A program made the translations under genes and the position numbers. From a virus, in IMG/VR virus record IMGVR_UViG_3300018430_001101, positions 1-64,000 of that record: a stretch of DNA of 64,000 nucleotides; one strand, written 5' to 3'. Under the pieces are notes generated by a model. It was not told the DNA's origin. It did no database searches and saw only the letters and a list, made by a program, of their open reading frames with translations. Of the stretch, positions 4,133 to 43,970 are shown piece after piece. The stretch's first letter is position 1. The number at the start of each line of letters is the position of its first letter.

Positions 4133-4193
4133 GGTCCGTCACCTCCTGTTGTTCCTGTTACTCCTGCTGTTCCTGTTGTTCCTGTTACTCCTG

Positions 4194-4463
4194 TTATTCC
4201 TGCTCCCCGTAGTCTCCGGTATCTACAACATCCCCGGCATCCGTTCCTGCCGGGACAGTCTGCGTTTCAAACTCCCTCGCCACTATGCGGGCAAGCACCC
4301 TGCGGATCTGCCCTGCGTCTTCCACAGTGGCCGTCCCGTTCAGGATGACATCCCGGAAGACTGTGAGCAGCTCCCTCTTCTGCGGGTTCGTGAGTTCCTT
4401 TTTCTTCAGATCCACCAGTTCCATCTCCATTCCCTCCGATCTGCAGCCTCTGTCGTTGCCCAC
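4194..4463 (-). CDS. Hypothetical protein
   Basis: 89-aa ORF between terminase and portal, coding-like composition; no recognised family. Confidence 0.35.
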   Translation of the reverse strand: MGNDRGCRSEGMEMELVDLKKKELTNPQKRELLTVFRDVILNGTATVEDAGQIRRVLARIVAREFETQTVPAGTDAGDVVDTGDYGEQE

Positions 4464-4469
4464 AGCTGT

Positions 4470-4685
4470 TTACTTCACTCCGATCAGGCTCCTGAACACT
4501 GACTCATACTGCCTCTTCGTCAAGAACAGCATCTTCGGATGGTACGCCTCCCGTGCGTGCTCCCGGATTACCTTGTCCACTTCCTCCGGGGCAAAGTCGC
4601 GTCTGTCGTAGAGCGCGACCTTCTCCGTTACGGGGCCGTCCCCGTACTGCTCCGTGTATTCCGTCTTGAAGATTTGGTGCTTCAT
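4470..4685 (-). CDS. Hypothetical small protein (internal ATG start MKHQIFKTEY...)
   Basis: ORF 4470..4826 overlaps terminase 3' end; internal Met at 4685 gives non-overlapping 71-aa product. Confidence 0.35.
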   Translation of the reverse strand: MKHQIFKTEYTEQYGDGPVTEKVALYDRRDFAPEEVDKVIREHAREAYHPKMLFLTKRQYESVFRSLIGVK

Positions 4686-4765
4686 AGTTCCTGTCCCTCC
4701 CTTTTCCCTCCCCACTTTGTAAAGTGGTATTCCTGTGGCGTGTCCAACTACCGCAGCCGGATTGG

Positions 4766-18798: not shown

Positions 18799-21700
18799 TC
18801 AGACGGCACCTTTTCCCGCTGCCCAGGCGATCCCTGAAAGCACGAAATAAACTATAGGCAAAGAAATCCCGTTGCCCCATAACTTGTACTCGGCGGCATC
18901 CGTGTGGGGATCGGCGAGCCATTTGCGGAGCTGCTTCTCCGTCTTCGGCTTCTTCCCGTTCATGGCGTTCCACGCGTCCCACACTCCCTTCCAGAACGCC
19001 ATTTCCTCCGGCGACGGATCCGGGTCTGCAAGGCCCGCGCACCACCAGTCCGGGAAGCCCTGGAGCCTCGCGCATTCGACCGGGGTGAGCCTGCGGACGA
19101 TGTACATGGGCTCCTCGTTCGGCATGTCGTTCAGGATCGGCGGGTCCTTGTAGTCCGTCGCCACAAGGGTGTTCGCCTGCTCCTTCGCGGGGTGCATGAA
19201 GAAGGAATTCTTGGATGTTGAGTAATGGCTGGCATCCTCCAGGGGTGCCGCCACGCAGTGCCGGTCCGCGGTATTGAGGGTGAACGCGACTTCCTCGTTG
19301 ATGCCGCTTCCCTGCGGGCCGTTCTTTTCCTTCCTCCCAACCATGGAACCCTGCAGCGAATAGGCAGGTTCCGCGGATTCAGCCGGTTCCACAGGCTCCA
19401 CAGGCGCGACGATGCAGATGCCCCCCTGGTTGCAGCAGGGATTACCTCCGCCCTGGTCAAGGGTCCGGCTCGTCTCCGCCTCGTAGAATCCTGCCTTCGG
19501 GTTGTCCGAAAGCATGGAGTGGGAACTCTTGCTGCACACGCCGAATGCCACCGGCTGGAACAGCGTCTGGTCATTGTGGGTGCCAAGTGTAGCAGATTTA
19601 TTGACCTGCCGGATCGGGCCTTTCCCTCCTCCGGGGCAGCCTCCACGGATCTTAAGGGTCACAGGCTCCGGCTCTGCCACAAGCGGCTGCGTGTTCCCGC
19701 CGGTTCCGTAGCGTGCAGTGACCGTGGGGCTGTCCTCCAGGGGGCCGTCATAGCGGCAGTCCTGCGGATGGTTGTCAAAGAGCATTGCCGCCGGGACTAC
19801 GCCCGCCCTCAGCGTAGGGGAGACTTCTTCCCCGTAGCCGATGCTCCGCGCCTTCGCGCTGTGTTCCGTGGAAAAGCCCGCTGCCTGGAGTACCTGTTCA
19901 CCGGATCCTTCAGCCAAAGCGTCGGGCGGAACCGCCGCAGGATGCAGGACGGCAGGGTGGTTGCCGTGGTCCTGCGCGACCAGGGTGCCCGCATGCCCCT
20001 CCGTGACGGTGATCCCGCTGCTCCCCTGGGGGTTCACGCACACTTCGGTCACACGGGATCCGCCTCCTGAACCGCCTGCGCTTACTCCACTTCCAGCGTC
20101 AGGCCGCCCGCCTGCCTCTCCAGCGCCTTTTTCAGCACCTCCGGCAGCTCCTTCCCACGCGCGGAAGCCCTGCGGAGTATACCCAGACACGCCTTCGGAC
20201 TCAAATAGTACTTCCGGGGCACTTCCTCCAGCAAAATCTGCGACAAGGTAGATCCTTGCGCGGCGCTGGGGGCAGGACCAGTATTGAGTGTCGAGAGTCC
20301 TGTAAGCCACGCTCCATCCGTCTCCCAGGTATACGTCCGCTTTAGGCCATCTGTAATTCTCAGGCGGAGGCACCTCGGCTCCTTCCTCCCTGACGCCGAT
20401 GACGGCTTCGAGGACGGCCTTGAAGTCCCTTCCCCCATTGGAGGAGAGGGCCCCAGTAACGTTTTCCCACACGCAGTATCTTGGGTATCTGCCATTTGTC
20501 GCCTCCCTCATTTCCCTGATGATCCGGATCGCCTCGAAGAACAGGTTTGACCTCTGTCCTTCATGGATGCCGGCCCGTTTGCCTGCTATGGAAAGATCCT
20601 GACAATTGTGCACTGTGATCCCGTCTGCAATATAGCTGTTATCCTCTTCTACTGTCAGGTTGTACACAAGCTTCGTATGATGTGTCGGGATCACTTTTCT
20701 CACCCGATACCATCCGTGCAGGTCGTCGGTAAGGTGGACCCGCTTCCCATTCCGTGTGATTTTTACTTCATAGCAGTCGTTCTGGTTGACCAGCCGTCCT
20801 TCTATTACCCCGGTTTTTCTGACATTATAGAGATAGACAGTTGTCGAATACCCCTGCACTTCCGCAAGAAGCCGGATGCTCTCGGCAAGCTTTTTGCTGA
20901 CCGTGCTGATCCTCCATGTTGTCTCTTTGCCCTTTACCTTGGACCCGTCAGAATCAATTAAACCGTTTAACAATGCCTGCCTGTATCCTTCCTGCATGCC
21001 GAAAACCCATCCCGGCATGGTTTTGCCGATTGCGTAACGACCGAAGTTATCCGTAAGCCATCCGCTCAGCACCTGGGAAACAAAAGAAAAACGCACGACA
21101 CCTCTGTCATGCGCAACGCAATATCTATCTGATATTTTCCCGACTATGCTTTTCAGTTCGTCTTCCTTATCTTCGGAATCACAGATGAAAACCTTCCCGT
21201 AAGTTTCTCCTTCCGGCCTGTTGCTTCTCTGTCCATTACATACCCACCCATCCCCGAGCCAGCGTCCCACAAAATAGAAGAAGTCTTCAGACAACGTCGG
21301 CATAGCCTTCTGCCTCCATGATCCTGAATACACTGGTGACGCAATCGGAAGACCCTCTACGGCATTGGGGACTCCCCAAAAACCACCTTCCATTTCTCCT
21401 GCAGGTATCCAGTTCCTCTCATCTGTCAGAATCAGTTGGTTTCCTCTTTTCCCGTTTCCAAGAGATGGGTAGTATTTTTTTACTCCGCAAGAATATATAG
21501 GATGGTTTGGCGTGCACTCCAAGCCATAGTGATTGCCTTTCAGTATCACGGTCTCTCCAGGCTTTGCGCCTGACGCAGTAACCTTCTTCCATCTGCCCTT
21601 ATGTGTGAGAACCTTTGTTCCGACTCCTATCTTCTCTATTGGAACATATCCCTCTTCTGTCAGCACCAGCGTCCCTGCCGGGAAGCAAGGCGAGCCAAAT

Positions 21701-21915
21701 GTTATGATGTCCACAGGCTCCAGTTCGGATCCTTTGAGCTTCGAAACATCCCCATAGTGCTTCACCTGCGGCAGCCGCCTGTGGGTGACCAGGATTGGGA
21801 ACGGCTCGATCTCGCTGGAAAAAACCGGCCTAATCCCGGCAAGGATGCCGCCTAAAGGAAAACCCCCGGAGCCGTCAAACAGGCTGCCGAGGGTCAGTGT
21901 TTTCTTTTCTGCCAT
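18799..21915 (-). CDS. DNA (cytosine-5)-methyltransferase with long variable region, interrupted by a LAGLIDADG intein
   Basis: Motif I LFDGSGG, motif IV split as GSP|intein|CQDLSIAGKRAG, ENV motif YCVWENV, C-terminal RRLTPVECARLQGFPDWW and GNGISLPIV. Confidence 0.9.
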   Translation of the reverse strand: MAEKKTLTLGSLFDGSGGFPLGGILAGIRPVFSSEIEPFPILVTHRRLPQVKHYGDVSKLKGSELEPVDIITFGSPCFPAGTLVLTEEGYVPIEKIGVGTKVLTHKGRWKKVTASGAKPGETVILKGNHYGLECTPNHPIYSCGVKKYYPSLGNGKRGNQLILTDERNWIPAGEMEGGFWGVPNAVEGLPIASPVYSGSWRQKAMPTLSEDFFYFVGRWLGDGWVCNGQRSNRPEGETYGKVFICDSEDKEDELKSIVGKISDRYCVAHDRGVVRFSFVSQVLSGWLTDNFGRYAIGKTMPGWVFGMQEGYRQALLNGLIDSDGSKVKGKETTWRISTVSKKLAESIRLLAEVQGYSTTVYLYNVRKTGVIEGRLVNQNDCYEVKITRNGKRVHLTDDLHGWYRVRKVIPTHHTKLVYNLTVEEDNSYIADGITVHNCQDLSIAGKRAGIHEGQRSNLFFEAIRIIREMREATNGRYPRYCVWENVTGALSSNGGRDFKAVLEAVIGVREEGAEVPPPENYRWPKADVYLGDGWSVAYRTLDTQYWSCPQRRARIYLVADFAGGSAPEVLFESEGVSGYTPQGFRAWEGAAGGAEKGAGEAGGRPDAGSGVSAGGSGGGSRVTEVCVNPQGSSGITVTEGHAGTLVAQDHGNHPAVLHPAAVPPDALAEGSGEQVLQAAGFSTEHSAKARSIGYGEEVSPTLRAGVVPAAMLFDNHPQDCRYDGPLEDSPTVTARYGTGGNTQPLVAEPEPVTLKIRGGCPGGGKGPIRQVNKSATLGTHNDQTLFQPVAFGVCSKSSHSMLSDNPKAGFYEAETSRTLDQGGGNPCCNQGGICIVAPVEPVEPAESAEPAYSLQGSMVGRKEKNGPQGSGINEEVAFTLNTADRHCVAAPLEDASHYSTSKNSFFMHPAKEQANTLVATDYKDPPILNDMPNEEPMYIVRRLTPVECARLQGFPDWWCAGLADPDPSPEEMAFWKGVWDAWNAMNGKKPKTEKQLRKWLADPHTDAAEYKLWGNGISLPIVYFVLSGIAWAAGKGAV
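20605..21687 (-). mobile_element. Intein (361 aa) in C5-MTase with LAGLIDADG motifs
   Basis: Begins CFPAGTLVLTEEG after ITFGSP; ends GITVHN followed by Cys that is the catalytic Cys of PCQ motif (junction verified at 20605-20607 = AAT Asn, then TGT). LAGLIDADG motifs FVGRWLGDGW and LLNGLIDSDGS. Confidence 0.8.
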
Positions 21916-26704: not shown

Positions 26705-28432
26705 TCACTTCCTGAACGTCCTGCTCAGGTTCCCTTTGCTACAGGACAGCTTCATCGTCCCAGGCAGGCAGTCGATGTAAACATCCCCGTTTTCGTGGTT
26801 CCTTGCGACCACGGCTCCCACGGCTTCGAGGCGTTTCCTCGTAGTCCCGCGCCCGGACCGCTCCGCATGGTGGTAATTGCTGAAGGCCACACGAGGCCTG
26901 ACGGCCCTGCAGATGGTCTCGTTGCACGCATTCGCATCACCATGCCACTGGCACTTCATGATGTCCGCCTTAAGATCCTTCAAGCTCTTCACGAGGAGGT
27001 TATTCCCCTCGTTCTGCAAATCGCCAGCGGAGTGGTACACCCACCCGTTGAGCGTCACGCGCAGCACCACTGACTCGTTGTTGATGAAGTGATGGCTGTC
27101 GTGTTCCTTCAAAGAGGCGGCAGGGCACTGGTACACACACCTGAAATGCATGTTTCCGATGGAGAACTCCGTCCCCGCCTTGACGTAATGCCCGGCCGCC
27201 TTTTTATACTGGCTGCGGAGCGCGTTCCCGTAGGTCTTCTGGTATTTATCCACCTCAGCAGGATCGGGGACATAAATGTCCTTCACCCCGAACTCCCTGA
27301 CCATCGCGCTGGTGCCGCCGTAATGGTCTCCATGGGCGTGGCTGATGATGATGGCATCAAGCTTTCTCACGCCGAGCGCCTTCAGCTTCCTGATGACATT
27401 CGCCGACGACTTGTCCATCGCAGTGTCGATCAGCACCGCATGCTCGACAGTCTTATCATCATCACCGTACTCAATCAGCGCCGTGCAGTCCCCGTACTGG
27501 CTGGATTCACTGCCAGTATCAAAGAAGGCAAGCGCCGCGATCCTGATGCGGTGCGGTACGGCAGGATTCTGGTTATCCACAGTCTCCTGGTTATCCACAG
27601 CCTCCTGCACTGTCGGCGTCCCGGAAGATTCTGCGGGATACTTCGGGCGGATGTACCCGTGGATCGTCCTGCCTGCCCTCACGCGCCGGTGCACCCCGCC
27701 GTCCCGGTACTGGCCGGAAATGTTGTAAGTCCCATCAATGGCAAGCTCCGTGTGGTTGGGCGTCCCGGATCCGTAGAGCACGATGTCGCCGGCCTTGATT
27801 CCAGTGCTCCCGCTGTGCCAGGTGCCGAGCTTCTTCGCGTTGCTTTTCAGGCTTGAGCAGCCCGTGCTCCCGCGCCCGATCAGGTCGATGTAACCTGCCC
27901 GCCAGAAGCAGGAGATGACCGTCTCGGAGCAGAGGGAATCCTTATCCGTCCGCAGGCGGATGCCGCCCACAGCCTTCGCGTATTCGTTGAAATCGGCGAC
28001 GATATCCTTCCTCGCGGTCTTTGAGTCGAGGTATTTCCCCATGCAGCCCAGGACTTTCTGGAATCCCACGGGCTCCGGAGCGGTGCTGGTGGAGCCAGGC
28101 TCCACAGACGAACCGGTTCCTGAGGACGCGTTGGTTCCCGCAGATGAAGCCGGCACTGCGGAAGCCACAGCCGCCTTCATAATCTTCGCATTCGGGAATC
28201 CCGCCGCCCGGACCTGCTCCAGGCGCTTCTTCGCGTTGGCCCCGTTTGCAAACGCACCGCACTGCACCTTCCAGAAGAGGCCGTCCTTCACGCATGCCAC
28301 GGAGATGTCCTCCTTCAGCTTCCCGGACTTCCTGCGGCTCCTGACCGCCGCTTCCACTGCAGCCTTCATCTTCTGCGCGTTCGATTTAGACAGGTACGCG
28401 CCGACCTGCACCTTATACAGGGTGCTCATGCT
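26705..28432 (-). CDS. Multidomain hydrolase: 2x SPOR + papain-like (NlpC/P60- or CHAP-like) Cys/His domain + C-terminal MBL-fold (ComEC/Rec2-like) metallo-hydrolase domain
   Basis: SPOR repeats LYKVQVGAYLSKSNAQK and FWKVQCGAFANGANAKKRLEQVRAAGF; Cys (SLCSETVISCFWRAGY) and His (GTPNHTELAIDG) pair; MBL motif DAIIISHAHGDHYGG plus downstream His/Asp residues. Confidence 0.6.
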   Translation of the reverse strand, partial: SMSTLYKVQVGAYLSKSNAQKMKAAVEAAVRSRRKSGKLKEDISVACVKDGLFWKVQCGAFANGANAKKRLEQVRAAGFPNAKIMKAAVASAVPASSAGTNASSGTGSSVEPGSTSTAPEPVGFQKVLGCMGKYLDSKTARKDIVADFNEYAKAVGGIRLRTDKDSLCSETVISCFWRAGYIDLIGRGSTGCSSLKSNAKKLGTWHSGSTGIKAGDIVLYGSGTPNHTELAIDGTYNISGQYRDGGVHRRVRAGRTIHGYIRPKYPAESSGTPTVQEAVDNQETVDNQNPAVPHRIRIAALAFFDTGSESSQYGDCTALIEYGDDDKTVEHAVLIDTAMDKSSANVIRKLKALGVRKLDAIIISHAHGDHYGGTSAMVREFGVKDIYVPDPAEVDKYQKTYGNALRSQYKKAAGHYVKAGTEFSIGNMHFRCVYQCPAASLKEHDSHHFINNESVVLRVTLNGWVYHSAGDLQNEGNNLLVKSLKDLKADIMKCQWHGDANACNETICRAVRPRVAFSNYHHAERSGRGTTRKRLEAVGAVVARNHENGDVYIDCLPGTMKLSCSKGNLSRTFRK

Positions 28433-29925
28433 TTCACCTCCGTACACACGATCACGGCATTGACCTTCTTCTTCCTCGCCCTGGACGCTTCTGCCTGTGC
28501 CTCCGCTGCGTTCCCGAATGCTCCCAGGCGCACCTTCCACAGGCCGCCGTCCTTCACAGCCGATGCGTTGAATCCCGCCATACGCAGCTGTTCCACGCGC
28601 TTGTCCGCGTTCTTCTGCTTTGCAAAAGCACCGAACTGGACGGCATACACAGTTTTGGTCTGTCCTGCTGCACTGGCTCCATCTTCCGCCGCTCCGGAAT
28701 CGGATCCTGATGCACTGGAGGCACTGGATGCTGCGGAACTGGCAGGCGTGGTATGTGCGTACCTGTCGTAGTACGCCTGCCCGAAGGCAGCCCTGCGCTC
28801 CTTCACTTCCTTCCCCTGGTTGGCGGGCTTCTCATAGCCGGTCAGTACCGCGTCGGACGCTTCCCGCACGCTCGTGGCTTTCTCCAGCTTCTCCAGGACT
28901 CCGCTGTAGTTCCCCCGCAGTTCCAGGCACAGGAAGGAGAGCTGCATGTGCATGTCGTCGATGGGCACGGCCTTTCCGCCCGCGTATCCGCCTTTCGCGT
29001 AGTCCAGCAGGGCCTTCTTCCTCGTGTGGAACGTCCACTGGGCGAGGCCGTATCCCGCCCCGTCGTTCACGAAGTTCATATACGAGCCGTTGTCCACAGC
29101 GGCTGTGTATCCCTTGTCAGTCACCCCCAGGCGCTTTTCGAAGACGTTCTGCAGGTTGTTGGGACGCAGGGCGGACTCCGCATAGAGGTTCCCCATGATG
29201 CCGGCAACGGCATAAGGGCCCATCCCTTTCGCGGACAGGAATTCCCAGATGGCCTTCTCCCGGTCCGCTTCCTCGTTGCCAATCAGCGCGGCTGCGGCAG
29301 TGTTCGGTTCTTCCACAGGCCTGTCCGCATCCTCCCCGGCAGATCCTGCTGCAGCAGAACCATCTGGCTCAGCGGACCCGGCAGAACTCTTCGCAAGCTC
29401 CGCGTTCACTGCGTCCGCAAGCTTCCCCATGCGCCCATAGAGCCAGTCTCCCGGACACGATTTATTTGCAAACCACCGGTGGACTGTGAGCACCATCTCG
29501 CCGTCCTTCGGCTGGTAGGCGAGCGCCGTCTTTTTATCCCCGAACCAGATCAGCCGGTCCTTGCCGTACCTCCGGCAGATGTCCGTGCAGAGCGCCACAA
29601 GGGATGCCCACACCCTGCTGTTCATCGTGTACGGGGCCGACGTCCCGCTTGCGCACTCGATGGTGATGGCCCTGTTGTCGTTGTCCGCGGAAGAACTGCA
29701 CCACGACTGGTTCTTCTCGTCCACATACAGCCCGATCTCGCCGTCCGTCCCGATGCCATAGTTGGACGATGCCTGGTAAGAACTGCGGGCAAATAAACTG
29801 CCGCACTGCTTCGCGGTCAGCTGCCCGACCATGCAGTGCGGCGTGATCCGCGTCACCTTATATGCCCTCGCCCCCGAGTGGTTCGGGGAGGGGACTGATA
29901 CTGTTGCCAGCCTGCTGTTGCCCAT
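28426..29925 (-). CDS. Endolysin-like: N-acetylmuramoyl-L-alanine amidase (Amidase_2/PGRP) + phage-tail-lysozyme-like domain + 2x SPOR
   Basis: SPNHSGARAYKVTRITPHCMVGQ (amidase_2), GIMGNLYAESALRPN...GYGLAQWT (lysozyme-like), C-terminal SPOR repeats; GGAGGA SD. Confidence 0.75.
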   Translation of the reverse strand: MGNSRLATVSVPSPNHSGARAYKVTRITPHCMVGQLTAKQCGSLFARSSYQASSNYGIGTDGEIGLYVDEKNQSWCSSSADNDNRAITIECASGTSAPYTMNSRVWASLVALCTDICRRYGKDRLIWFGDKKTALAYQPKDGEMVLTVHRWFANKSCPGDWLYGRMGKLADAVNAELAKSSAGSAEPDGSAAAGSAGEDADRPVEEPNTAAAALIGNEEADREKAIWEFLSAKGMGPYAVAGIMGNLYAESALRPNNLQNVFEKRLGVTDKGYTAAVDNGSYMNFVNDGAGYGLAQWTFHTRKKALLDYAKGGYAGGKAVPIDDMHMQLSFLCLELRGNYSGVLEKLEKATSVREASDAVLTGYEKPANQGKEVKERRAAFGQAYYDRYAHTTPASSAASSASSASGSDSGAAEDGASAAGQTKTVYAVQFGAFAKQKNADKRVEQLRMAGFNASAVKDGGLWKVRLGAFGNAAEAQAEASRARKKKVNAVIVCTEVKA

Positions 29926-32168: not shown

Positions 32169-32405
32169 TCATGCCTGTACATCCGAAGCACGCATCCACG
32201 CCCTCCTGTTCCAGGCACGCATTGTCTTCCTCTCATGCTCCTGCGCAGTCTCTCCGAGGCCTGAGCTATACTCGATCCTCTCTTTCGAGAACAATGTAAC
32301 CGCCCCACATTCAGGGCACTGGATCTCTGCCCCGTGATTGCTCATAAGGAGCAGCGGAGTGCCACCGCAGAACGGGCACGGCTTTAAGCTGTCTGCTAAA
32401 TCCAT
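32169..32405 (-). CDS. Lar-like restriction-alleviation zinc-finger protein
   Basis: N-terminal CPFCGG ... CPECG pattern of Lar family. Confidence 0.45.
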   Translation of the reverse strand: MDLADSLKPCPFCGGTPLLLMSNHGAEIQCPECGAVTLFSKERIEYSSGLGETAQEHERKTMRAWNRRAWMRASDVQA

Positions 32406-32417
32406 TGCTTCCCTCCA

Positions 32418-35400
32418 TCATCCGGACTGCCCCTTGATATATCCCGCGATCATTCCGATTCCTTCGTACACCTTTGTGCTTTTGTACACCTGTGTTCCTC
32501 CGCCGGAAACCGTACCGCAATCCGTAGATGAAGCCGGGACTTCCACGACCAGGGCGGGTGCCTGCATGATGCCAAGGCTGTCCGCATACATCATGCCGGG
32601 ATCCGTGTCAGCAAAAATGACGCGGTACCTTATCCCCGCTTTGTCCAGCATCTTCTTTGCGGCCTTGCAGTTCGGGCATGTCCTGGTTGCGACGAGCACG
32701 GCTTTCTTCTGGTTCTCCGGGTAGTCCTTATCAGCCGGGATTCCGGCATCCCCGTTTTCCACAGTGGCGTGTCTGTCCGTAGCGGTGTGTCTGTCCACAG
32801 TGGAATTCCCAGCCACTGTTTCGGTCTCAGTCAGGTCTTCCAGGCTGACTTCTCCCCTGACCCTGACCTTAGCCATTACCTTGCCCTTCACCGTCCCCGT
32901 GACAGGCCCATCCAGCCTGTCTTCCGCATAGGTGACGCGCTCCCTGAACTCGGATGCCTTGCCGTCGTTCCAGTTACGGAGCGGCCGGTAGTATCCGGTG
33001 ATCCGGGAGTAGACTTCCGCTTCCCTGCCGCATTCCGGGCAGGTGAAATGCTTCCCGGGTATGTAGCCGTGGATCTCGCATACCGAATATGTCGGCGTCA
33101 GCGTGTAATACGGCAGGCGGAAGTTCTCGGCGATCTTGCGCACCAGGTCGCGCGCGGCCTTCCAGTCCCTCAGCTCCTGCCCGAGGAATCCGTGGAACAC
33201 GGTGCCGGAGGTGTAGAGGACCTGCATGTCGTCCTCCAGCTCCAGCGCGTCAAAGATGTCGTCGGTAAAACCGACCGGAAGGTGGGTGCTGTTCGTGTAG
33301 AACGGTGCTCCTCCATTCTTCTCCGCCGTGATGATGTCCGGGAATTCCTCCACGTCATGCTTCGCGAAGCGGTACGTCGTGGACTCGGCAGGCGTCGCCT
33401 CAAGGTTGTAAAGGTCCCCGTACTGCTCCTGATAGTCGGACAGGCGGTTCCTCATATGGTTCAGGACGTCCAGAGCGAACTGGTGTCCTTCCTTCCCCGT
33501 GATGTCCCCGTCCAGCCAGGTGGCATTCTCGATTGCCTCGTTCATGCCCACGATGCCGATGGTGGAGAAGTGGTTCTCGAAGGAGCCGAGGTACCGCTTC
33601 GTGTACGGGTAGAGGCCGCCTTCCATGAGGCCGGTGATGGTCCTGCGCTTGATCTTGAGCGACCTCGCCGCAAGGTCCATGTAGTGGTCGAGCATCACAT
33701 AGAAGTCTTCCTCGGAGCCTGACAGGTATGCCAGGCGCGGCAGGTTCAGGGTGACCACGCCGACGGAGCCGGTGCTTTCACCGGAGCCGAAGAAGCCGCC
33801 GCCCTTTTTACGCAGCTCGCGCAAGTCGAGGCGGAGGCGGCAGTTGTGGGTGACCAGCCCGCAGGGAAGGGTGAAGTAAGGCTCGCTGTCATCGAGCACT
33901 TCAAAGCAGTATCCGATATGGGAGCCATTTTCCACTTCGGAAATGCTCTGGATCCGGAACCACATGTAGCCGTCTTCTTTCACATACACGTCGCCATAGG
34001 ACTTCTGCCCGTTGTCAACGCTGTATGGCCTGATGGAGTATACAGGATTGTCAGAAAGTGTAGTGGTGCTGTCCCTGTCATCCATTGAAATCCTGGAAGG
34101 GATGCCCATCGACATCAGCATGGCCGCCATGGATTCCACAGCCTTCTTTGATGCCGAGTAGATCCTGTTCTTCGTCCCGCCGTCGGTCCTCCTGTATCCG
34201 TCCAGGATCCCTTCCCGGAATGCCAGGGATTTCCCGATGCACTTGGGGTTCAGTTCCTTGCTGAGGGCCTTGCCTGAGACGTATTCCTCGATCAGCCCCC
34301 TCAGCATCCGCGAGTACACGGTCACGTTGACGCAGTGGTTTTTCAGGTCATTGATTGCCACTTTGCCGCCATACCTCCCCTCAGCCAGCTTGATGATGTC
34401 TGCCATCAGGCCCGCCTTCGATGTACGGTTCAGGGAGAATGTAATTCCGTTAGCTTCCCGCAGGCTTCCATCACCCATGAACGCGCCAACCATCAGGCCA
34501 TCGTCATAGCTAAGCCCGGAACCGTCAAAGGGAACGACGTTGAAGGGAAGGTAATCGCCCGCCGTAAGCTCGTCTGTCCGCTTAATATCATTTCCCAAAA
34601 CAAGGTTTGCGTGGGAAGCGGACAGGACAACTTCATGCCCGTTCACAGTCCTGATCCTGTAAAACCTCTGGTTATCGTACCGATGGATCCTCGCCCTTTT
34701 CGTTTCCCCGTTCAGGATGACCTCATAAGTCTTTTCCCGCCTTCCGTTCCTCTCGCATGCCTTATACAGCGATTCGATGGGGCTGATGTGGAATTCACGT
34801 GCGTAGTCATCCCTGACAAGGACCTTCTCCTTCCCATGGAGCGGGCACATGGCCCTCACATCGGACGGCTTCATGTCGGAGCTGACGTAGTTGGAGTAAT
34901 ACGGCGTGCCGTACTTCGCCGTCATCTCGAACAGGAGCCTGTTGTTTTCCGTATCGCTCCAGTCGAAGTCGTTCGTGATGGAGTAGGTAGGGATCGGGTA
35001 CTGGAAGCCCCGCCCGTTGGCGTCCCCTTCGAGCATAATCTCGATGAACGCCTTATTGACCATGTCCATTTCCTTCTTGCAGTCGCCGTAGGTGAAATCC
35101 ATCTCCTTTCCGCCCACGATGGCGGGGAGGTCTTTCATGTCAGGCGGGCATGTCCAATCCAGCGTCACATTGGTAAACGGGGCCTGGCACTGTCCGGAGA
35201 TAAAAACCTCCCCGTCCGCGCTTCTGAAAACTGCCGTCCCGTTGTCGTCGTTCGGGCACCATACAATGCCCTTGTAGGGGATTTCGGTTCTCGTTGAGGG
35301 CTGGACGTTTTCTGTCTTGCGGATTTTTACGTAATTCGCTTTCCTGGTATGGTGCTTGAAAGAGGTATACCCGGCACGGAGGGCGATATGCTGGAGCGCG

Positions 35401-37013
35401 TCAGCGATATCGTCGTTGTCGTACTGCAGCATGAATTTCTCATCCCTCCCATCGTATCTTGACCAGGCGGCAAGGAATACCTCCGAGCAGTCCGCGCTCA
35501 TCCTCGTAAACTTCGGATGGATGCTCTTTTTCGTTGTACCCACAAGCTCGACGATCGCCCTTGCGCTGTCCCCGTAGAAACTGTACTTGTTCACAGGGCT
35601 TCCGAAGCCGCCAGTGAGTTCCTTCCTGGTGTACTTAAAGCCAAGGATGCCGGAAAGCTCCTCGATTTCTTCATTGCCTTCCCTGTTCGGGGACTTGTAA
35701 ATGCAGACTTTATGCACGCTCCCGCCTCTCATGTCGATACTGCCGTCGGTATATACAATTGCGGCGAAGGCAGCTTCTGCCTCCGTGATGCCCTTTTCCC
35801 TGGCGGTAATGCTGCTGCCATGGAACCTGACAGGAAGGTAATACGGCGTCTTCACGCCGAATATGTCCTCCGAACGGCGGATAACGTACTGGTCAAGGTT
35901 ATGCTTTTTGCAAAGCACCCTGTGGTCCGGGGTAACCGTCTGGCTGTATCCGCGCGCCCTGTACTGATGCAGCACTCCGTTATGTTCCTTTACAACGATC
36001 TCGTTAAGGGGGCACAGCTCAAGGGCGCCATTTTTCCAGGTGTAGATATTCTCCCCCTTCTTAAGGTCGTTGTAATGCTTCCAGCCTTCCTCGGTCAGGA
36101 TTTCAGTTGACGGCGGTACGCACCCCCATCTCGAAGGCGTGTTGACGCCGTAGATGAAGGACTGGATGCACTGCTTCACCTCCTGGTATGTCAGGTGGTC
36201 CGCCCTGACGAACGGGGCGAGGTAAGTGTCGAAGGACGAGAACGCCTGCGCCCCTGCCCACTCGTTCTGGAGGATCCCCAGGAAGTTGACCATCTGGTTG
36301 CAGAGCGTCGACAGGTGCTTTGCCGGGGCGGACGAGATCTTCCCGGGCACGCCGCCAAGCCCCTCCTGGATCAGCTGTTTCAGGCTCCATCCCGCGCAGT
36401 ACGGAGTCAGCATCGACAGGTCGTGCAGGTGGAGGAAGCACTGCCTGTGCGCCTGGGCGATGTCCTCGTCATAGACCTCGGACAGCCAGTAATTCGCCGT
36501 GACCGCCCCTGAGTTCGACAGGATCAGGCCGCCGACGCTCAGAGTGACGGTGGAGTTCTCCTTCACGCGCCAGTCCTTGTTCGCCCCTGTGTACCCCTCG
36601 ATCAGCTTTTTGTAGTCAAGGAGCGTCTTCTTCGCCTGCCGGGTCTTCCCATGCTGGCTGCGGTAGAGGATGTATGCCTTTGCCGTCTCCGGGTATCCCG
36701 ACTTCATCAGGGCCGCCTCGACCCTGTCCTGGATCTCTTCCACAGTGGGGATGGATTCCCGGCTTCCCCTATCAGTTCCTCCTGCAGGCATAGTGTCCAC
36801 AGTGGTTGTATCCGCATCGGGACCTGCAGTACCGTTGCCGCTTCCCTGCATCCCGCTGAGGAGCAGGATCACGATGGCTTCGGAGACGCCCTCCACATGT
36901 TCCGCATCGACCTCTCCCGATGCCCTGAATGCTTTTGCGACGGCATTCTCGATCTTCGACCTGTCAAAGTCCACGACCCTTCCGTCGCGCTTTTTTATCT
37001 TCCTGATGTCCAT
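32418..37013 (-). CDS. nrdD: Anaerobic ribonucleoside-triphosphate reductase (class III, NrdD) with ATP-cone, two LAGLIDADG inteins and C-terminal glutaredoxin/NrdH-like domain
   Basis: ATP-cone MDIRKIKKRDGRVVDFDRSKIENAVAKAF; NrdD core (GVNTPSRWG, CRLRLDLREL); zinc ribbon CEIHGY...CPECG; glycyl-radical motif RITGYYRPL; C-terminal CPNC redoxin domain. ORF-track 5' extension overlaps HNH gene, so start placed at ATG 37013. Confidence 0.85.
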   Translation of the reverse strand: MDIRKIKKRDGRVVDFDRSKIENAVAKAFRASGEVDAEHVEGVSEAIVILLLSGMQGSGNGTAGPDADTTTVDTMPAGGTDRGSRESIPTVEEIQDRVEAALMKSGYPETAKAYILYRSQHGKTRQAKKTLLDYKKLIEGYTGANKDWRVKENSTVTLSVGGLILSNSGAVTANYWLSEVYDEDIAQAHRQCFLHLHDLSMLTPYCAGWSLKQLIQEGLGGVPGKISSAPAKHLSTLCNQMVNFLGILQNEWAGAQAFSSFDTYLAPFVRADHLTYQEVKQCIQSFIYGVNTPSRWGCVPPSTEILTEEGWKHYNDLKKGENIYTWKNGALELCPLNEIVVKEHNGVLHQYRARGYSQTVTPDHRVLCKKHNLDQYVIRRSEDIFGVKTPYYLPVRFHGSSITAREKGITEAEAAFAAIVYTDGSIDMRGGSVHKVCIYKSPNREGNEEIEELSGILGFKYTRKELTGGFGSPVNKYSFYGDSARAIVELVGTTKKSIHPKFTRMSADCSEVFLAAWSRYDGRDEKFMLQYDNDDIADALQHIALRAGYTSFKHHTRKANYVKIRKTENVQPSTRTEIPYKGIVWCPNDDNGTAVFRSADGEVFISGQCQAPFTNVTLDWTCPPDMKDLPAIVGGKEMDFTYGDCKKEMDMVNKAFIEIMLEGDANGRGFQYPIPTYSITNDFDWSDTENNRLLFEMTAKYGTPYYSNYVSSDMKPSDVRAMCPLHGKEKVLVRDDYAREFHISPIESLYKACERNGRREKTYEVILNGETKRARIHRYDNQRFYRIRTVNGHEVVLSASHANLVLGNDIKRTDELTAGDYLPFNVVPFDGSGLSYDDGLMVGAFMGDGSLREANGITFSLNRTSKAGLMADIIKLAEGRYGGKVAINDLKNHCVNVTVYSRMLRGLIEEYVSGKALSKELNPKCIGKSLAFREGILDGYRRTDGGTKNRIYSASKKAVESMAAMLMSMGIPSRISMDDRDSTTTLSDNPVYSIRPYSVDNGQKSYGDVYVKEDGYMWFRIQSISEVENGSHIGYCFEVLDDSEPYFTLPCGLVTHNCRLRLDLRELRKKGGGFFGSGESTGSVGVVTLNLPRLAYLSGSEEDFYVMLDHYMDLAARSLKIKRRTITGLMEGGLYPYTKRYLGSFENHFSTIGIVGMNEAIENATWLDGDITGKEGHQFALDVLNHMRNRLSDYQEQYGDLYNLEATPAESTTYRFAKHDVEEFPDIITAEKNGGAPFYTNSTHLPVGFTDDIFDALELEDDMQVLYTSGTVFHGFLGQELRDWKAARDLVRKIAENFRLPYYTLTPTYSVCEIHGYIPGKHFTCPECGREAEVYSRITGYYRPLRNWNDGKASEFRERVTYAEDRLDGPVTGTVKGKVMAKVRVRGEVSLEDLTETETVAGNSTVDRHTATDRHATVENGDAGIPADKDYPENQKKAVLVATRTCPNCKAAKKMLDKAGIRYRVIFADTDPGMMYADSLGIMQAPALVVEVPASSTDCGTVSGGGTQVYKSTKVYEGIGMIAGYIKGQSG
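32421..32730 (-). other. Glutaredoxin/NrdH-like domain (CPNC active site) fused to C-terminus of NrdD
   Basis: KKAVLVATRTCPNCKAAKKMLDKAGIRYRVI...MQAPALVV after the glycyl-radical motif. Confidence 0.6.
33843..34847 (-). mobile_element. Intein 2 of NrdD (335 aa, LAGLIDADG)
   Basis: Begins CPLHGKEKVLV after DVRAM; ends CGLVTHN followed by CRLRLDL (Asn codon 33843-33845 verified). Motifs LMVGAFMGDGS and EGILDGYRRTDGG. Confidence 0.8.
35190..36122 (-). mobile_element. Intein 1 of NrdD (about 311 aa, LAGLIDADG), atypical C-terminal ...SGQ
   Basis: Begins CVPPSTEILTEEG after NTPSRWG; LAGLIDADG-like AAIVYTDGSID and LAAWSRYDGRD; host sequence resumes CQAPFTNVTLDW. No HN at C-terminus, so boundary approximate. 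Confidence 0.55.
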
Positions 37014-37183
37014 ATCTTCGTCTCCGTTTCTCACTCTGTCCCGCTTCTCCTGCTGCATTTCGCCCGTCCTGCTTCTCCTGCCGCGTTCCATCTGTCCCGC
37101 TTCTTCTGACCGAATCGGATCCGCTCTCACCGCTGCCACGTCGTCGGGATGCAGGTCGCAGGATGCAGGACGCAGCTGGGCCG

Positions 37184-37543
37184 TCAGTACCTGTACACGG
37201 GGTGCATGTCCTGCGCCCCCGTCTTCATGCTGTGGTGGGAATGGCAGAGCGCCTGCCAGTTGCCCTCGTCCCAGAAAAGCTCCGGGTCTCCGCGGTGCGG
37301 CACGATGTGGTCCACGTCGGTCGCCTTCACGTACTGTCCCTGCCGATAGCACTCCACGCACAGCGGATGGGCTTCAAGGTACCGCTTCCTGGCTTTCTGC
37401 CAGCGGCTCCCATAACCCCGCTTAGATGCAGAGCGGTTCTCTTCCGGGTGCAACTGCTTATGTTTCTCACAGTATCTCGTCCCAGCATCTACCAGTTCCG
37501 GGCATCCCTGATGGCGGCAGGGCACTCTCGGTTTCGTAGGCAT
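37184..37543 (-). CDS. HNH endonuclease
   Basis: CxxC pairs plus DVDHIVPHRGDPELFWDEGNWQALCHSHH (HNH motif). Confidence 0.8.
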   Translation of the reverse strand: MPTKPRVPCRHQGCPELVDAGTRYCEKHKQLHPEENRSASKRGYGSRWQKARKRYLEAHPLCVECYRQGQYVKATDVDHIVPHRGDPELFWDEGNWQALCHSHHSMKTGAQDMHPVYRY

Positions 37544-37547
37544 CGTC

Positions 37548-38723
37548 TTACACCTCCCACGGCAGCCCGGCCTTTCCGAAGTGGCCGTAGGCGCTTACCC
37601 TGTTGTAGTCCACGTCCAGAAGTCCCATCTTCTCGATGATGCCCCTCGGTGTAAGGTCGTAAGATCTCCTCACCCAGGCTTCAATCTCATCGGTTCCCAC
37701 AGTTCCCTCGCCTCCCGCGGCTCTCTCGGTCCTCTCGATCCTCTCGATCCCGAATGTGTCCACGCTGATTCCCACGGGCTCCGCCACTCCGATGGCGTAT
37801 GCGAGCTGGACTTCGCACCTGTCGGCGTAACCGGCACGCACGATGTCCTTCGCGATCTTTCTCGCCATGTAAGCCCCGGACCTGTCGACCTTGGAGGGAT
37901 CCTTGCCGCTTAATGCCCCGCCTCCGATGTGTCCCACGCCCCCGTAGGTGTCGCAGGCGAGCTTGCGGCCCGTCACGCCGCAGTCTGCAAAAGGGCCGCC
38001 GATGACGAACCTGCCCGTCGGGTTGACCAGCTTTGCGAAGTCATGGTTTAAACCGTACTCCGATGCCGCCAGCACCATCATGACCTCGATGATGTGGCGG
38101 AAGTCCTCCACTTCCACGTCAGGAGAGTGCTGGACGCTGCACAGAAATGTCGTGATCCTGCCGCTGTCGTAGTCGAAGCTGACCTGTGCTTTCGCATCGG
38201 CACGGAACATCCCGCTCGGATAGCTCTTAAGCATCTGCAGGAACTTCGTAGCAACCGCAAAGGGGACCGGCAGCATCTCCGGCGTCTCGTTTGTCGCGTA
38301 GCCGTACATGATGCCCTGGTCTCCCGCGCCGCCCTTGTCCACGCCGAGGGCGATGTCAGGAGACTGGCGGGTGACGAGGATCCCGATGTCGGAGCCGTTG
38401 ATGCTGTAATCCAGGCTTCCCCGGCCTCCATTATGGCCTCCCGTGCTTCCACCGTATCCAGCTCCCCGGCTGTAGATCCCCCCGAGCCTCTCACGCCCAA
38501 TCCTGTCAAACACTGACTCTACGAGTGACCTGTAGTCCGGCTTGTGCGTGCTCGTCAGCTCCCCGGCGATCGTGATGTGCTCGTCCTTCACGAGGACTTC
38601 CATCGCCACGCGGCTGCTTTTGTCATGCTTCATACAGTCCGTCACGATGGCGTCCGCGATCTGGTCACAGATCTTGTCCGGATGCCCGTCCGATACCTGC
38701 TCACATGTAATGATCCTGCCCAT
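37548..38723 (-). CDS. metK: S-adenosylmethionine synthetase (MetK)
   Basis: SDGHPDKICDQIADAI, GGGAFSGKDP-like and DRSGAYMARKIAKD hallmark motifs; start at ATG 38723 preceded by GAGGAGAGGAGG. Confidence 0.9.
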   Translation of the reverse strand: MGRIITCEQVSDGHPDKICDQIADAIVTDCMKHDKSSRVAMEVLVKDEHITIAGELTSTHKPDYRSLVESVFDRIGRERLGGIYSRGAGYGGSTGGHNGGRGSLDYSINGSDIGILVTRQSPDIALGVDKGGAGDQGIMYGYATNETPEMLPVPFAVATKFLQMLKSYPSGMFRADAKAQVSFDYDSGRITTFLCSVQHSPDVEVEDFRHIIEVMMVLAASEYGLNHDFAKLVNPTGRFVIGGPFADCGVTGRKLACDTYGGVGHIGGGALSGKDPSKVDRSGAYMARKIAKDIVRAGYADRCEVQLAYAIGVAEPVGISVDTFGIERIERTERAAGGEGTVGTDEIEAWVRRSYDLTPRGIIEKMGLLDVDYNRVSAYGHFGKAGLPWEV

Positions 38724-38782
38724 AGGATCCTCCTCTCCTCTGAAGCTTTCCACATATCTGCTTCATCCTGCGGCGCACTGTA

Positions 38783-42388: not shown

Positions 42389-43111
42389 CTACCGTTCCTG
42401 GGTTTCATCTGTACCTGCATCATTGGAACCGGGGGAAACGTGAGAACCTGCACACCCTGCATACCCTGCGTATCCCGCATACCCCGGATCGCAGATATCG
42501 GCTGGAACCTGGGTGATGGGAACCGGGTCGAAGGGAGCCGGCGTGGAAAACTCCAGATGCCCGGCTACGGCTTCCTCGATTTCCCGGAGCTTCAGCCCGT
42601 CCGTGATGCGGCCCATGTCGCTCACGAGGGCCTGGGGGCTGATCGTCGTGATCTGCTCCGCCATGGTCAGGCCCGGTTTGAACGTCCTGCCCTCGCCCCG
42701 GCCGGTGAGGTCGGCTTCCGTGACCGGCACGTGCGTCGGGAGGTAGTACCTCTTGTGCTTCGTTGTCATCGGCACCACCGTCGCGACTTCGCGCTTCATG
42801 TTCGCTTCCTCATTGGACAGCACCACGACCGGCCTGCAGCCTTCCTCCACGCACGTCCCGGGGTGGAGCCCCAGCTGCGCGAACCAGACATCGCCCCTGT
42901 GGATCTCCCTTGCCGGGAACCTGCGGATCCTGCAGCGCCCTGCCACAATTGTGTCGGGGAGTGCGGTCGGCACCTCCTGATGTCCGGGATAGAAGGTTGT
43001 GTTCCGATGGCCGCTGTGCGCTTTGCCACTGTGCCTGCCGTGGTTGTTTCTACGGTTGCTGCGCTTCCTGGGATTTCTGTTGATCCTGTTATGATGTTCA
43101 AGTCTTCTCAT
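42389..43111 (-). CDS. MazF/PemK-fold endoribonuclease-like protein with basic N-terminal and Gly/Tyr/Ala-rich C-terminal extensions
   Basis: Core IHRGDVWFAQLG...RPVVVLSNEEANMKREVATVVPMTT...LTMAEQITTI matches PemK/MazF pattern; ATG 43111 after AGGAGAG SD. Confidence 0.65.
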   Translation of the reverse strand: MRRLEHHNRINRNPRKRSNRRNNHGRHSGKAHSGHRNTTFYPGHQEVPTALPDTIVAGRCRIRRFPAREIHRGDVWFAQLGLHPGTCVEEGCRPVVVLSNEEANMKREVATVVPMTTKHKRYYLPTHVPVTEADLTGRGEGRTFKPGLTMAEQITTISPQALVSDMGRITDGLKLREIEEAVAGHLEFSTPAPFDPVPITQVPADICDPGYAGYAGYAGCAGSHVSPGSNDAGTDETQER

Positions 43112-43442
43112 CTTCAATCTCTCCTGTGCATATCTGCTGCTCTGTATCCTCCTGCCCCGGCGTCTCAGCTCCTGTCCATCCCGGCATTCCCCCATCCACT
43201 TCACCAGCGGAAGTTAAAGAGGACGCCAGGGCATAAAAAATGCCGGGAGCGGCTTTGGCACCGCCCTCGGCAAATGGAAAAGGAGACTAAGCTATGGACT
43301 TCATCTTTGTGCGTTCCTGCGGAAGCTTTCGTTTGTGTTTCTGTGTTTGTCTTCCGCTTTCGCGCATTGTAATAATAGCACATTTTTTACTACGCTTTTT
43401 GAGCCGAAAAGTATCATCGAAACTGCCAAAAAGTATCATTTC

Positions 43443-43970
43443 TTACGGAACGCACATGAGTTCAGGAACCAAACTGCTTTGCATTCTCAATCTGAATTGA
43501 ATCTCCTCCCTGACAGCTTCTATCCCTTTTCTTTTTATGCGTTTTATTGTGATAATTGAAAGCCCGTATTTTTCCATGGCTTCTTCAAACGACAACTTCT
43601 CAAAGAATAAATCCTTGATGATCTCCCTGTCCCGATCAACTTCTTTCCCAGACAGTCTTTCAGAAAGTGCAACGTCCACGATGCCTTCTAATTCCATGTT
43701 CATAAGATAATCCCGCAGCACCTTTTTATCACGGGCAGACAGGATATCTCCCCGAAGGGCGTGCATAAGCCTTGTGGAAATCTCAACATCTGAAAGCCCG
43801 TTATTGACTCCAAATGTCCTCAACAGTGACGGCCTGTTCTTCTCTATCAATCTGCGTTCACGGATGAACCTGTTATACGAAAAGAGCATTTTCTTTTCTG
43901 CCCCGTCCTGGGACAGGTATTTAATGGTTCCCTCGCTAAACGGAAGATCCAAATAATATCCCCCATTCAT
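43443..43970 (-). CDS. ArpU/sigma-70 region-4-like transcriptional regulator (candidate late-gene activator)
   Basis: C-terminal LSFEEAMEKYGLSIITIKRIKRKGIEAVRE helix-turn-helix resembling sigma region 4 / ArpU family. Confidence 0.55.
   Translation of the reverse strand: MNGGYYLDLPFSEGTIKYLSQDGAEKKMLFSYNRFIRERRLIEKNRPSLLRTFGVNNGLSDVEISTRLMHALRGDILSARDKKVLRDYLMNMELEGIVDVALSERLSGKEVDRDREIIKDLFFEKLSFEEAMEKYGLSIITIKRIKRKGIEAVREEIQFRLRMQSSLVPELMCVP

Follow-up and report, generated by a model that had tools for sequence, protein, structure and literature searches.

The described system closest to the one considered here is a fused gene of the grx::nrdD type from Lachnospiraceae bacterium TWA4 (WP_082039398.1), the one such entry in the compilation of Rozman Grinberg et al. 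2018 (PMC6187632, Table S1), which was placed in the NrdDd subclass of the class III ribonucleotide reductases (RNRs) and was not characterised. For a class I enzyme, the Grx-ATP-cone-NrdB protein of Facklamia ignava, the same study established that a fused glutaredoxin (Grx) is a functional RNR reductant. Within class III, PMC4493059 follows the subtypes of Wei et al. and defines NrdD2 by a third cysteine plus a glutamate and NrdD3 by the third cysteine without the glutamate, both cysteines of the motif being essential in the NrdDs of Thermotoga maritima and Neisseria bacilliformis. In the same paper the loop 288-MGCR-291 of bacteriophage T4 is aligned to 328-SCCR-331 of T. maritima, and subclass NrdDd falls within NrdD2 (PMC4493059). 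Glu438 has been proposed as the base in the thioredoxin-dependent enzyme of N. bacilliformis (PMC4390871). The NrdD3 of Methanosarcina barkeri has, as cited in PMC9176816 and PMC5704485, an operon-encoded NrdH-like redoxin, which stands in an electron chain from ferredoxin through a ferredoxin-dependent disulfide reductase (FDR) and NrdH to NrdD. Here we describe an nrdD gene in a stretch of phage DNA of 64,000 nucleotides (IMG/VR record IMGVR_UViG_3300018430_001101, positions 1 to 64,000; the window hereafter), whose product continues behind its glycyl-radical motif into a CPNC redoxin domain. With moderate confidence we suggest that this tethered redoxin serves as the dedicated disulfide reductant of NrdD at turnover, and that the gene came from a gut host lineage.

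The gene lies on the minus strand in an uninterrupted open reading frame (ORF; 32418..37361, from the ORF list and translation), with a likely start at ATG 37013 (MDIRKIKKRDGR, MDIRKIKK, ATP-cone) that has GGAG upstream and agrees with the N-termini of homologues. The precursor coding sequence (32418..37013, minus strand) comprises 1531 aa and a stop codon (32418-32420, by translation), and about 885 aa would be left once two inteins are removed. Its sequence places the product among the class III ribonucleotide reductases, as an NrdD that belongs to the NrdDd / PRK08270 clade and whose active site is of the NrdD2 type. Pfam NRDD (PF13597) matches it with an E-value of 1.7e-171, next to matches to ATP-cone, Intein_splicing and Glutaredoxin; the NCBIfam models NF006126 and TIGR02487 give its post-intein half 488 and 279 bits, respectively, and a close homologue, P0113, reaches 1112 bits on NF006126 (cutoff 548). 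The best PDB sequence matches of the core are solved NrdDs, and the spliced protein shares 66-74% identity with NrdDs (800-880 aa) of Lachnospiraceae, Eubacterium and other Eubacteriales. The glycyl-radical motif RITGYYRPL (Gly1340; 32979..33005, minus strand) aligns with the glycyl loops of 4coi, 8p23 and 1h78, and from there through CPNC to the nrdD stop the frame contains neither a stop codon nor a frameshift. The initial annotation had proposed a redoxin joined to NrdD in this way, and the peptides that it quoted are present in a single ORF on the minus strand, with no stop between the two parts. The interval that it gave, 32421-32730, covers the redoxin with the last residues of the linker; the whole tail behind the glycyl motif is longer than the estimated ~100 aa, with 186 aa divided between a 90-aa linker and a domain of ~96 aa.

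The redoxin domain (KKAVLVATRTCPNC...IKGQSG; 32421..32708, minus strand) has a thioredoxin fold according to Pfam, AlphaFold2 and Foldseek, which bears out the fold signature claimed in the initial annotation. PF00462 (Glutaredoxin) scores 25.5 bits on the whole protein and 29.1 bits on the tail alone (cutoff 22.9), and against PDB sequences the tail yields weak NrdH-redoxin matches (E 3e-4 to 6e-3). For the final 100 residues, an AlphaFold2 model built on a 22-sequence alignment reached a mean predicted local distance difference test score (pLDDT) of 86.9 with the order beta-alpha-beta-alpha-beta-beta-alpha, only a lineage-specific loop being uncertain. Its top Foldseek matches in the PDB are nearly all thioredoxin-fold proteins (Grx, thioredoxin, NrdH, protein disulfide isomerase, N-domains of glutathione S-transferases; probability ~1.0) and also include a glutaredoxin/ferredoxin-disulfide-reductase fusion. 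The CPNC redox-active motif (32667..32678, minus strand) is present in 23 of the 24 sequences of alignment A1, and the Ala-Pro of 'QAPxL' (32556..32561, minus strand) occupies the cis-proline position, its proline being invariant in alignment A2 and its cis conformation suggested by the fold. Over 22-24 homologues the invariant residues comprise T-x-T-C-P-x-C, the proline of 'APTL' and further core positions. The loop between beta3 and beta4 (32475..32543, minus strand; pLDDT 62-67) carries a phage-lineage-specific insertion of 16-20 aa with one extra cysteine (A1, A2); in bacteria the domain is a minimal thioredoxin fold of ~77 aa. The linker (90 aa; 32709..32978, minus strand) begins with ~17 aa that form the conserved NrdD C-terminus, and its remainder varies in length and sequence in A1, with 45-135 aa separating the glycyl motif from CxxC in the loci scored by regular expression. 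In a full-length AlphaFold2 model of low overall quality the linker has no secondary structure and a pLDDT of 25-36, as against 87-91 for the domain.

Glutathione-dependent glutaredoxins are recognised by CPYC or CPFC, TVP and GG-x-DD, and NrdH-redoxins by a C(V/M)QC active site and WSGFRP. A classical Grx1/Grx3 identity was rejected for the phage domain, which has CPNC, reads 'QAPTL' for TVP and lacks GGxDD (TIGR02181 22 bits, cutoff 90), and likewise an identity as NrdH-redoxin (TIGR02194 24.4 bits, cutoff 85.75; neither CVQC nor WSGFRP). The YruB family (TIGR02196) is the best NCBIfam match of the bacterial homologues, but at 24-34 bits against a cutoff of 88.55 it was also discarded; altogether the NCBIfam models for YruB, NrdH, Grx3 and mycoredoxin give 17-34 bits at cutoffs of 85-90. 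Free-standing CPNC proteins of 72-79 aa that are 38-42% identical to the redoxin exist among representative sequences. The matches of the domain in that search are chiefly proteins of 70-160 aa, many of them probably pieces of fused genes that lie on short contigs.

The core of the protein carries the residues expected of a thiol-dependent enzyme. Cys206 (TPYCAGW; 36396..36398, minus strand), the conserved bottom-face reducing cysteine, corresponds to T. maritima Cys125 in the alignment to 4coi and is invariant in A1. Equally invariant there is Glu1205 (NLEATPAES, E559 in spliced numbering; 33399..33401, minus strand), a candidate NrdD2-type active-site glutamate. It aligns with T. maritima Glu495, which we take to be the NrdD2 glutamate and the equivalent of N. 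bacilliformis Glu438; the same position holds Tyr in T4 and Streptococcus thermophilus and Leu in Prevotella copri. The finger loop of the intein-free homologues has the adjacent Cys-Cys pair throughout, reading (S/A)MCCRL in 23/23 aligned homologues, in all 14 viral loci whose loop was scored and in 80/80 genome loci, the last with (V/I)RSMCCRL. In the phage protein itself the pair is split by intein 2, and its members are, by alignment A1 and coordinates, Cys723 (34845..34847, minus strand), which is either the first MCCRL cysteine or residue 1 of the intein, and Cys1058 (33840..33842, minus strand), the +1 residue of the intein and second MCCRL cysteine. The cysteine pair that the initial annotation had proposed to look for is thus found as SMCCRL or AMCCRL in the homologues, and together with Glu at the Glu495 position it points to the thiol-type core predicted there. 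NrdD1, the formate-type subtype with a single cysteine in MGCR and no Glu, was ruled out by the family loop (S/A)MCCRL and by a Glu where T4 has Tyr, and NrdD3 by the presence and invariance of this Glu. By the criteria of Cys-Cys and Glu, the family is NrdD2-like and neither NrdD1 nor NrdD3.

The fusion is not peculiar to this phage. Every one of the best 120 database matches to the phage NrdD has at least 799 aa; about 76 of them, by our own count, carry a precomputed PF00462 annotation, and 15 of those without it were aligned and contain the CPNC domain in all cases. We surveyed one genome per GTDB species, obtained at least 600 matches and scored the best 80 loci, in which the match extends through the redoxin and all of which (80/80) have a CxxC redoxin after the glycyl motif in the same ORF (74 CPNC, 3 CPKC, 3 other). 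Among the matches listed are Lachnospiraceae, Oscillospiraceae/Ruminococcaceae, Faecalibacterium prausnitzii, Pseudoflavonifractor, Butyrivibrio, Erysipelotrichaceae, Christensenellales, Negativicutes (Dialister, Phascolarctobacterium), Eggerthellaceae and one metagenome-assembled genome of a spirochaete. Four bacterial contexts show ordinary chromosomal surroundings (glnA, serS, rnf, scpAB, cmk, thiamine genes, transporters), with nrdG directly before nrdD in two of the four. In IMG/VR, 22 loci with relatives were found, at least 15 of them with the fused redoxin, and in the human-faecal phage MT835493 (GenBank) an NrdD-CPNC fusion of 810 aa comes after an nrdG-like ORF. NrdD-redoxin is the normal form of NrdD in many gut Bacillota and in some Actinomycetota. 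Because the fusion is common in the host-type chromosomal enzyme, the arrangement was inherited and is not an invention of the phage, and we infer that the phage acquired nrdD from a gut host lineage that carried it. The arrangement is neither rare nor specific to phages; it is an ordinary chromosomal NrdD architecture in a large part of the gut Bacillota.

These counts also bear on the question of whether a separate redoxin gene was merely attached to nrdD through an error of sequencing or assembly or through a missed stop codon. Separate grx genes beside nrdD do occur in other phages, and a split gene was one of the outcomes that the initial annotation had named as overturning its proposal. 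The frame is continuous in the window, however, and the same fusion recurs in the independent, near-identical P0001, in the 80 species genomes and at the IMG/VR loci just mentioned; we reject an artefact on the continuous frame and the independent assemblies, and its probability is negligible.

If the redoxin is the turnover reductant, each catalytic cycle would leave a disulfide between the bottom-face Cys206 and one cysteine of the MCCRL finger-loop pair, and the CPNC dithiol would swing in on its linker to reduce this active-site disulfide, either in its own subunit or in the partner subunit of the dimer. Glu1205 would take the role of the base that formate has in NrdD1 enzymes, and the oxidised CPNC would be recycled by a host enzyme, either a flavoenzyme of the thioredoxin-reductase type or a ferredoxin-dependent disulfide reductase. 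Host NrdG would be required for activation because the window has no nrdG. All this presupposes that the two inteins are first removed and that one of them, on leaving, restores the Cys-Cys pair. In favour of the turnover role stand the NrdD2 residues of the core, the broad conservation of the domain and its CxxC in chromosomal settings, a linker of variable length whose low pLDDT beside a confident domain fits a tether, and the precedent of the F. ignava protein (PMC6187632).

Several points weigh against a turnover role. The full-length AlphaFold2 model, for which a shallow alignment of close homologues was used and whose mean pLDDT is 56, gave no usable docking of the redoxin on the core. 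The co-occurrence of the redoxin with the Cys-Cys pair and Glu may reflect phylogenetic inertia, all the evidence coming from one NrdD clade. None of the four bacterial contexts examined has a reductase gene adjoining nrdD. Since the redoxin scores far under the cutoffs for NrdH, YruB and Grx3, its recycling partner cannot be inferred from family membership. A conventional splice of intein 2 at Cys1 would leave a single cysteine, so that a residue essential in NrdD2 would be lost. For the NrdD-redoxin fusion, we found no biochemically characterised member in the searchable literature; the remark of the initial annotation that it knew of no characterised fusion therefore stands as regards biochemistry, but the fusion itself had already been catalogued in 2018 (PMC6187632). 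Lastly, thioredoxin acts on E. coli NrdD in a different capacity, as an activator (PMC4390871).

This last point opens a different reading, in which the redoxin would serve activation or maintenance and hold the zinc-ribbon cysteines, or others on the surface, in the reduced state that lets NrdG install the glycyl radical; it might also feed electrons to the activase. Turnover would in this reading be left to free thioredoxin or formate. The activation of E. coli NrdD by thioredoxin is in its favour, as is the place of the redoxin right behind the region of the glycyl radical and of the zinc-ribbon-like site (C1312-x2-H1315 ... C1325-P-E-C1328; 33030..33080, minus strand), a site kept in A1 that would bind a metal. 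In other phages (P0288, P0311 and others), moreover, a domain resembling ferredoxin:thioredoxin reductase (FTR) is attached to NrdG instead of NrdD, which could point to activation. On the other side, the core holds the full set of residues for a disulfide-based turnover and hence needs a protein dithiol donor anyway, the two roles are compatible, and a fusion on a formate-type NrdD was not seen, in a search that was not systematic. We regard an activation role, the main rival of the turnover reading, as rather unlikely.

The reductant role at turnover, which we prefer, can be set beside redoxin-NrdD modules of other phages. In Clostridium phage phiCTP1 (HM159959, L111 2571-5011) a 74-aa CPKC 'putative glutaredoxin' (gp45) overlaps the start of nrdD (gp46), whose product is of the CC/Glu type (SMCCRM, LEASPAE), and an NrdG-like gp47 comes next. 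On phage contigs L113 and L114, grx and nrdD are followed by polA and an FTR-like gene of 83 aa, with a called nrdG between nrdD and polA only in L114. In two IMG/VR loci (L011 and L021, both 2956-5601) a triple fusion unites NrdD, a CPNC redoxin and a ~55-aa FTR-like domain, whose pattern NDGYCPC-x9-CMC-x11-CHC is the cysteine signature of the FTR catalytic subunit and which scores 21.3 bits on PF02943, just under the cutoff of 22. In P0288, P0299, P0304, P0311, P0347 and P0353 the same mini domain forms the C-terminal part of NrdG-like radical-SAM activases; it was also found at locus L115 6001-6705, and it occurs as a free-standing gene of 81-85 aa (L113/L114 6001-6252) in phage nucleotide-metabolism modules with grx and nrdD; its free-standing homologues lie on contigs of ~57-59 kb. 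We found nothing on an FTR-like domain with phage NrdG in the searchable literature. The occurrence of both fused and split arrangements (phiCTP1, L113/L114, L011/L021) is evidence for a functional link between redoxin and NrdD, as far as gene order and domain composition can suggest one.

The phage gene carries two inteins. Intein 1 (311 aa, CVPPS...FISGQ; 35190..36122, minus strand) sits in SRWG|(T->C)QAPF and is an exact insertion relative to 23 homologues. It has no Pfam match, ends in Gly-Gln, not His-Asn, and is followed by a +1 Cys where all homologues have Thr. Intein 2 has a LAGLIDADG-type core (33843..34847, minus strand; Pfam Intein_splicing) and counts 335 aa from Cys723 or 334 from Pro724. 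It interrupts the finger loop exactly at its catalytic Cys-Cys pair (AM-C|P...VTHN|C-RLRLDL), the precursor reading ...RAM-C-P-L-H...V-T-H-N-C-R-L... where homologues have ...RSM-C-C-R-L...; the M-C-P junction is found in all four alleles at this site (this window, P0001, P0207, P0271), and a homology search with intein 2 returned two matches only, both at the same NrdD site. Splicing from Cys1 would give AMCRL, whereas an intein that starts at Pro724 would restore the MCCRL pair. The class 3 prototype, DnaB of mycobacteriophage Bethlehem, has Pro1, a Block F Cys and a Block G Thr-His-Asn, and class 3 inteins have a Block B Trp and usually Ser/Thr at +1 (PMC2807308). Intein 2 shares the Block F Cys (YCFEV) and the Thr-His-Asn of Block G, but has Asn or Gln at Block B position 12, not Trp, and Cys at +1. 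A class-3-like splice with Pro1 that would restore MCCRL is the more economical, if tentative, reading of this junction. Further inteins are present in the large terminase (4766-7486, minus strand; its ATPase domain is in two halves with Hint and LAGLIDADG between them) and in a C5 DNA methyltransferase (18799-21915, minus strand; Hint_2, Hom_end, LAGLIDADG, Intein_splicing), so that the phage has, with the two of nrdD, at least four inteins in three genes.

The position of intein 2 between two cysteines could hint at a role for the redoxin outside the catalytic cycle, redox-controlled inteins being described in PMC6195587. The domain could then be a sensor or switch that gates by redox state, for example, the activity of the enzyme or the splicing of the intein, or else a redoxin of general use that serves other proteins; that it lies outside every named redoxin family and has an extra cysteine in the lineage-specific loop of the phage copy would be in line with this. 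The redoxin is, however, kept in 80/80 intein-free bacterial genomes, so that control of an intein cannot be its primary role, and the strict retention of both CxxC cysteines and of the cis-proline fits a catalytic dithiol-disulfide exchanger. A sensor or general-purpose function is in our view very unlikely.

The observations on inteins and on FTR-like domains can be combined with the fusion in a joint scenario that we consider a long shot. A class III RNR of gut phages would be wired through the mini ~55-aa FTR-like domain, with electrons passing from low-potential ferredoxin to FDR, to the redoxin and to NrdD, and intein 2 would be class-3-like with Pro1, its splicing gated by the thiol redox state. 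If this were true, the tethered CPNC redoxin would be the last link of a ferredoxin chain and the mini FTR-like domain would be previously undescribed. A redox-gated intein 2 would mean that the oxygen-sensitive enzyme matures only in reducing conditions, possibly aided by its own redoxin tail.

The window as a whole is a phage genome, with a large terminase, portal, head protease, family-A DNA polymerase, D5-type primase and SPOR-domain endolysins. The nrdD gene was initially thought to be a self-contained module of the phage, which is contradicted by the absence of partner genes: tblastn with four NrdG queries found no nrdG homologue in the 64-kb window (E > 0.6), its plausible ORFs contain no CX3CX2C motif, and no thioredoxin-reductase or FTR/FDR-like gene was found in it. 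In the related phages MT835493, phiCTP1 and Oceanotoga phage UFV02, nrdG adjoins nrdD. Immediately upstream of nrdD lies a gene for a complete MetK, S-adenosylmethionine (SAM) synthetase (37548-38753, minus strand); SAM is a co-substrate of NrdG and of the DNA methyltransferases of the phage. Directly downstream is a 78-aa Lar-family restriction-alleviation protein (32169-32405, minus strand; PF14354, E 6.7e-14). The N-terminal ATP-cone of NrdD (36648..37013, minus strand; PF03477, E 1.6e-20, in two stretches) is interrupted by a phage-lineage-specific insertion of ~30 aa (~residues 55-88, ~36750-36850; alignment A1), and the near-identical P0001 has shorter versions of this insertion and of that in the redoxin loop. 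Elsewhere on the minus strand are a 271-aa protein with a PemK/MazF toxin domain (42389-43204), a sigma-70 region-4 protein (43443-43970) and, beside an amidase/lysozyme/SPOR endolysin, a 611-aa protein with SPOR and metallo-beta-lactamase domains (26705-28540).

Taken alone, the phage gene brings little that is new: its architecture abounds in sequence databases and had been reported in 2018. New here is the scale: in major lineages of the human gut and the rumen, F. prausnitzii included, NrdD-redoxin is the default anaerobic RNR. A tethered 1:1 pair of redoxin and NrdD would be well suited to the question of how a protein dithiol reaches the active-site disulfide of the finger loop, which is seen flipped out of the barrel in crystal structures of T. 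maritima NrdD. The phage seems to import only the catalytic subunit with its built-in reductant and to rely on the host for activation and electrons. The side observations on inteins and on the FTR-like domain are more unusual than the fusion itself.

Among the known systems, M. barkeri NrdD3 resembles the phage locus in that a small redoxin is genetically linked to nrdD, and the FTR-like fusions of related phages recall its electron chain; however, it has separate proteins and an NrdD3 without the Glu that is present in the phage family, and an FDR-like gene is absent from the window. The NrdD2 enzymes of N. bacilliformis and T. maritima share with the phage family the (S/M)CCR Cys-Cys, the Glu and the bottom-face Cys, and use a protein dithiol, not formate (PMC4493059, PMC4390871). 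They differ in employing free thioredoxin, in belonging to subclass NrdDh, not NrdDd, and in having no fused domain. In phiCTP1 a redoxin with CPxC, of ~74 aa, is encoded right beside a CC/Glu-type NrdD, likewise in a phage, but as a separate upstream gene, with an NrdD that lacks the ATP-cone and with an activase present. The F. ignava protein also has a CxxC domain of glutaredoxin fold covalently attached to an RNR component, the role as a reductant being proven in F. ignava only; there, however, the enzyme is of class I and a GrxC-type, glutathione-dependent Grx is N-terminal on the radical-generating subunit, whereas the phage domain sits at the C-terminus of the catalytic glycyl-radical subunit and has no glutathione-type motifs. 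Closest is the grx::nrdD of Lachnospiraceae TWA4 (PMC6187632), which represents the same type of fusion and, judging by the homologues examined here, probably the same architecture, in a family that supplies many of the best matches of the phage protein. TWA4 was a single case from a RefSeq domain search, whereas the fusion proves here to be the rule in hundreds of species, and the phage copy differs from TWA4 by its two inteins, by insertions in loops and by a longer linker.

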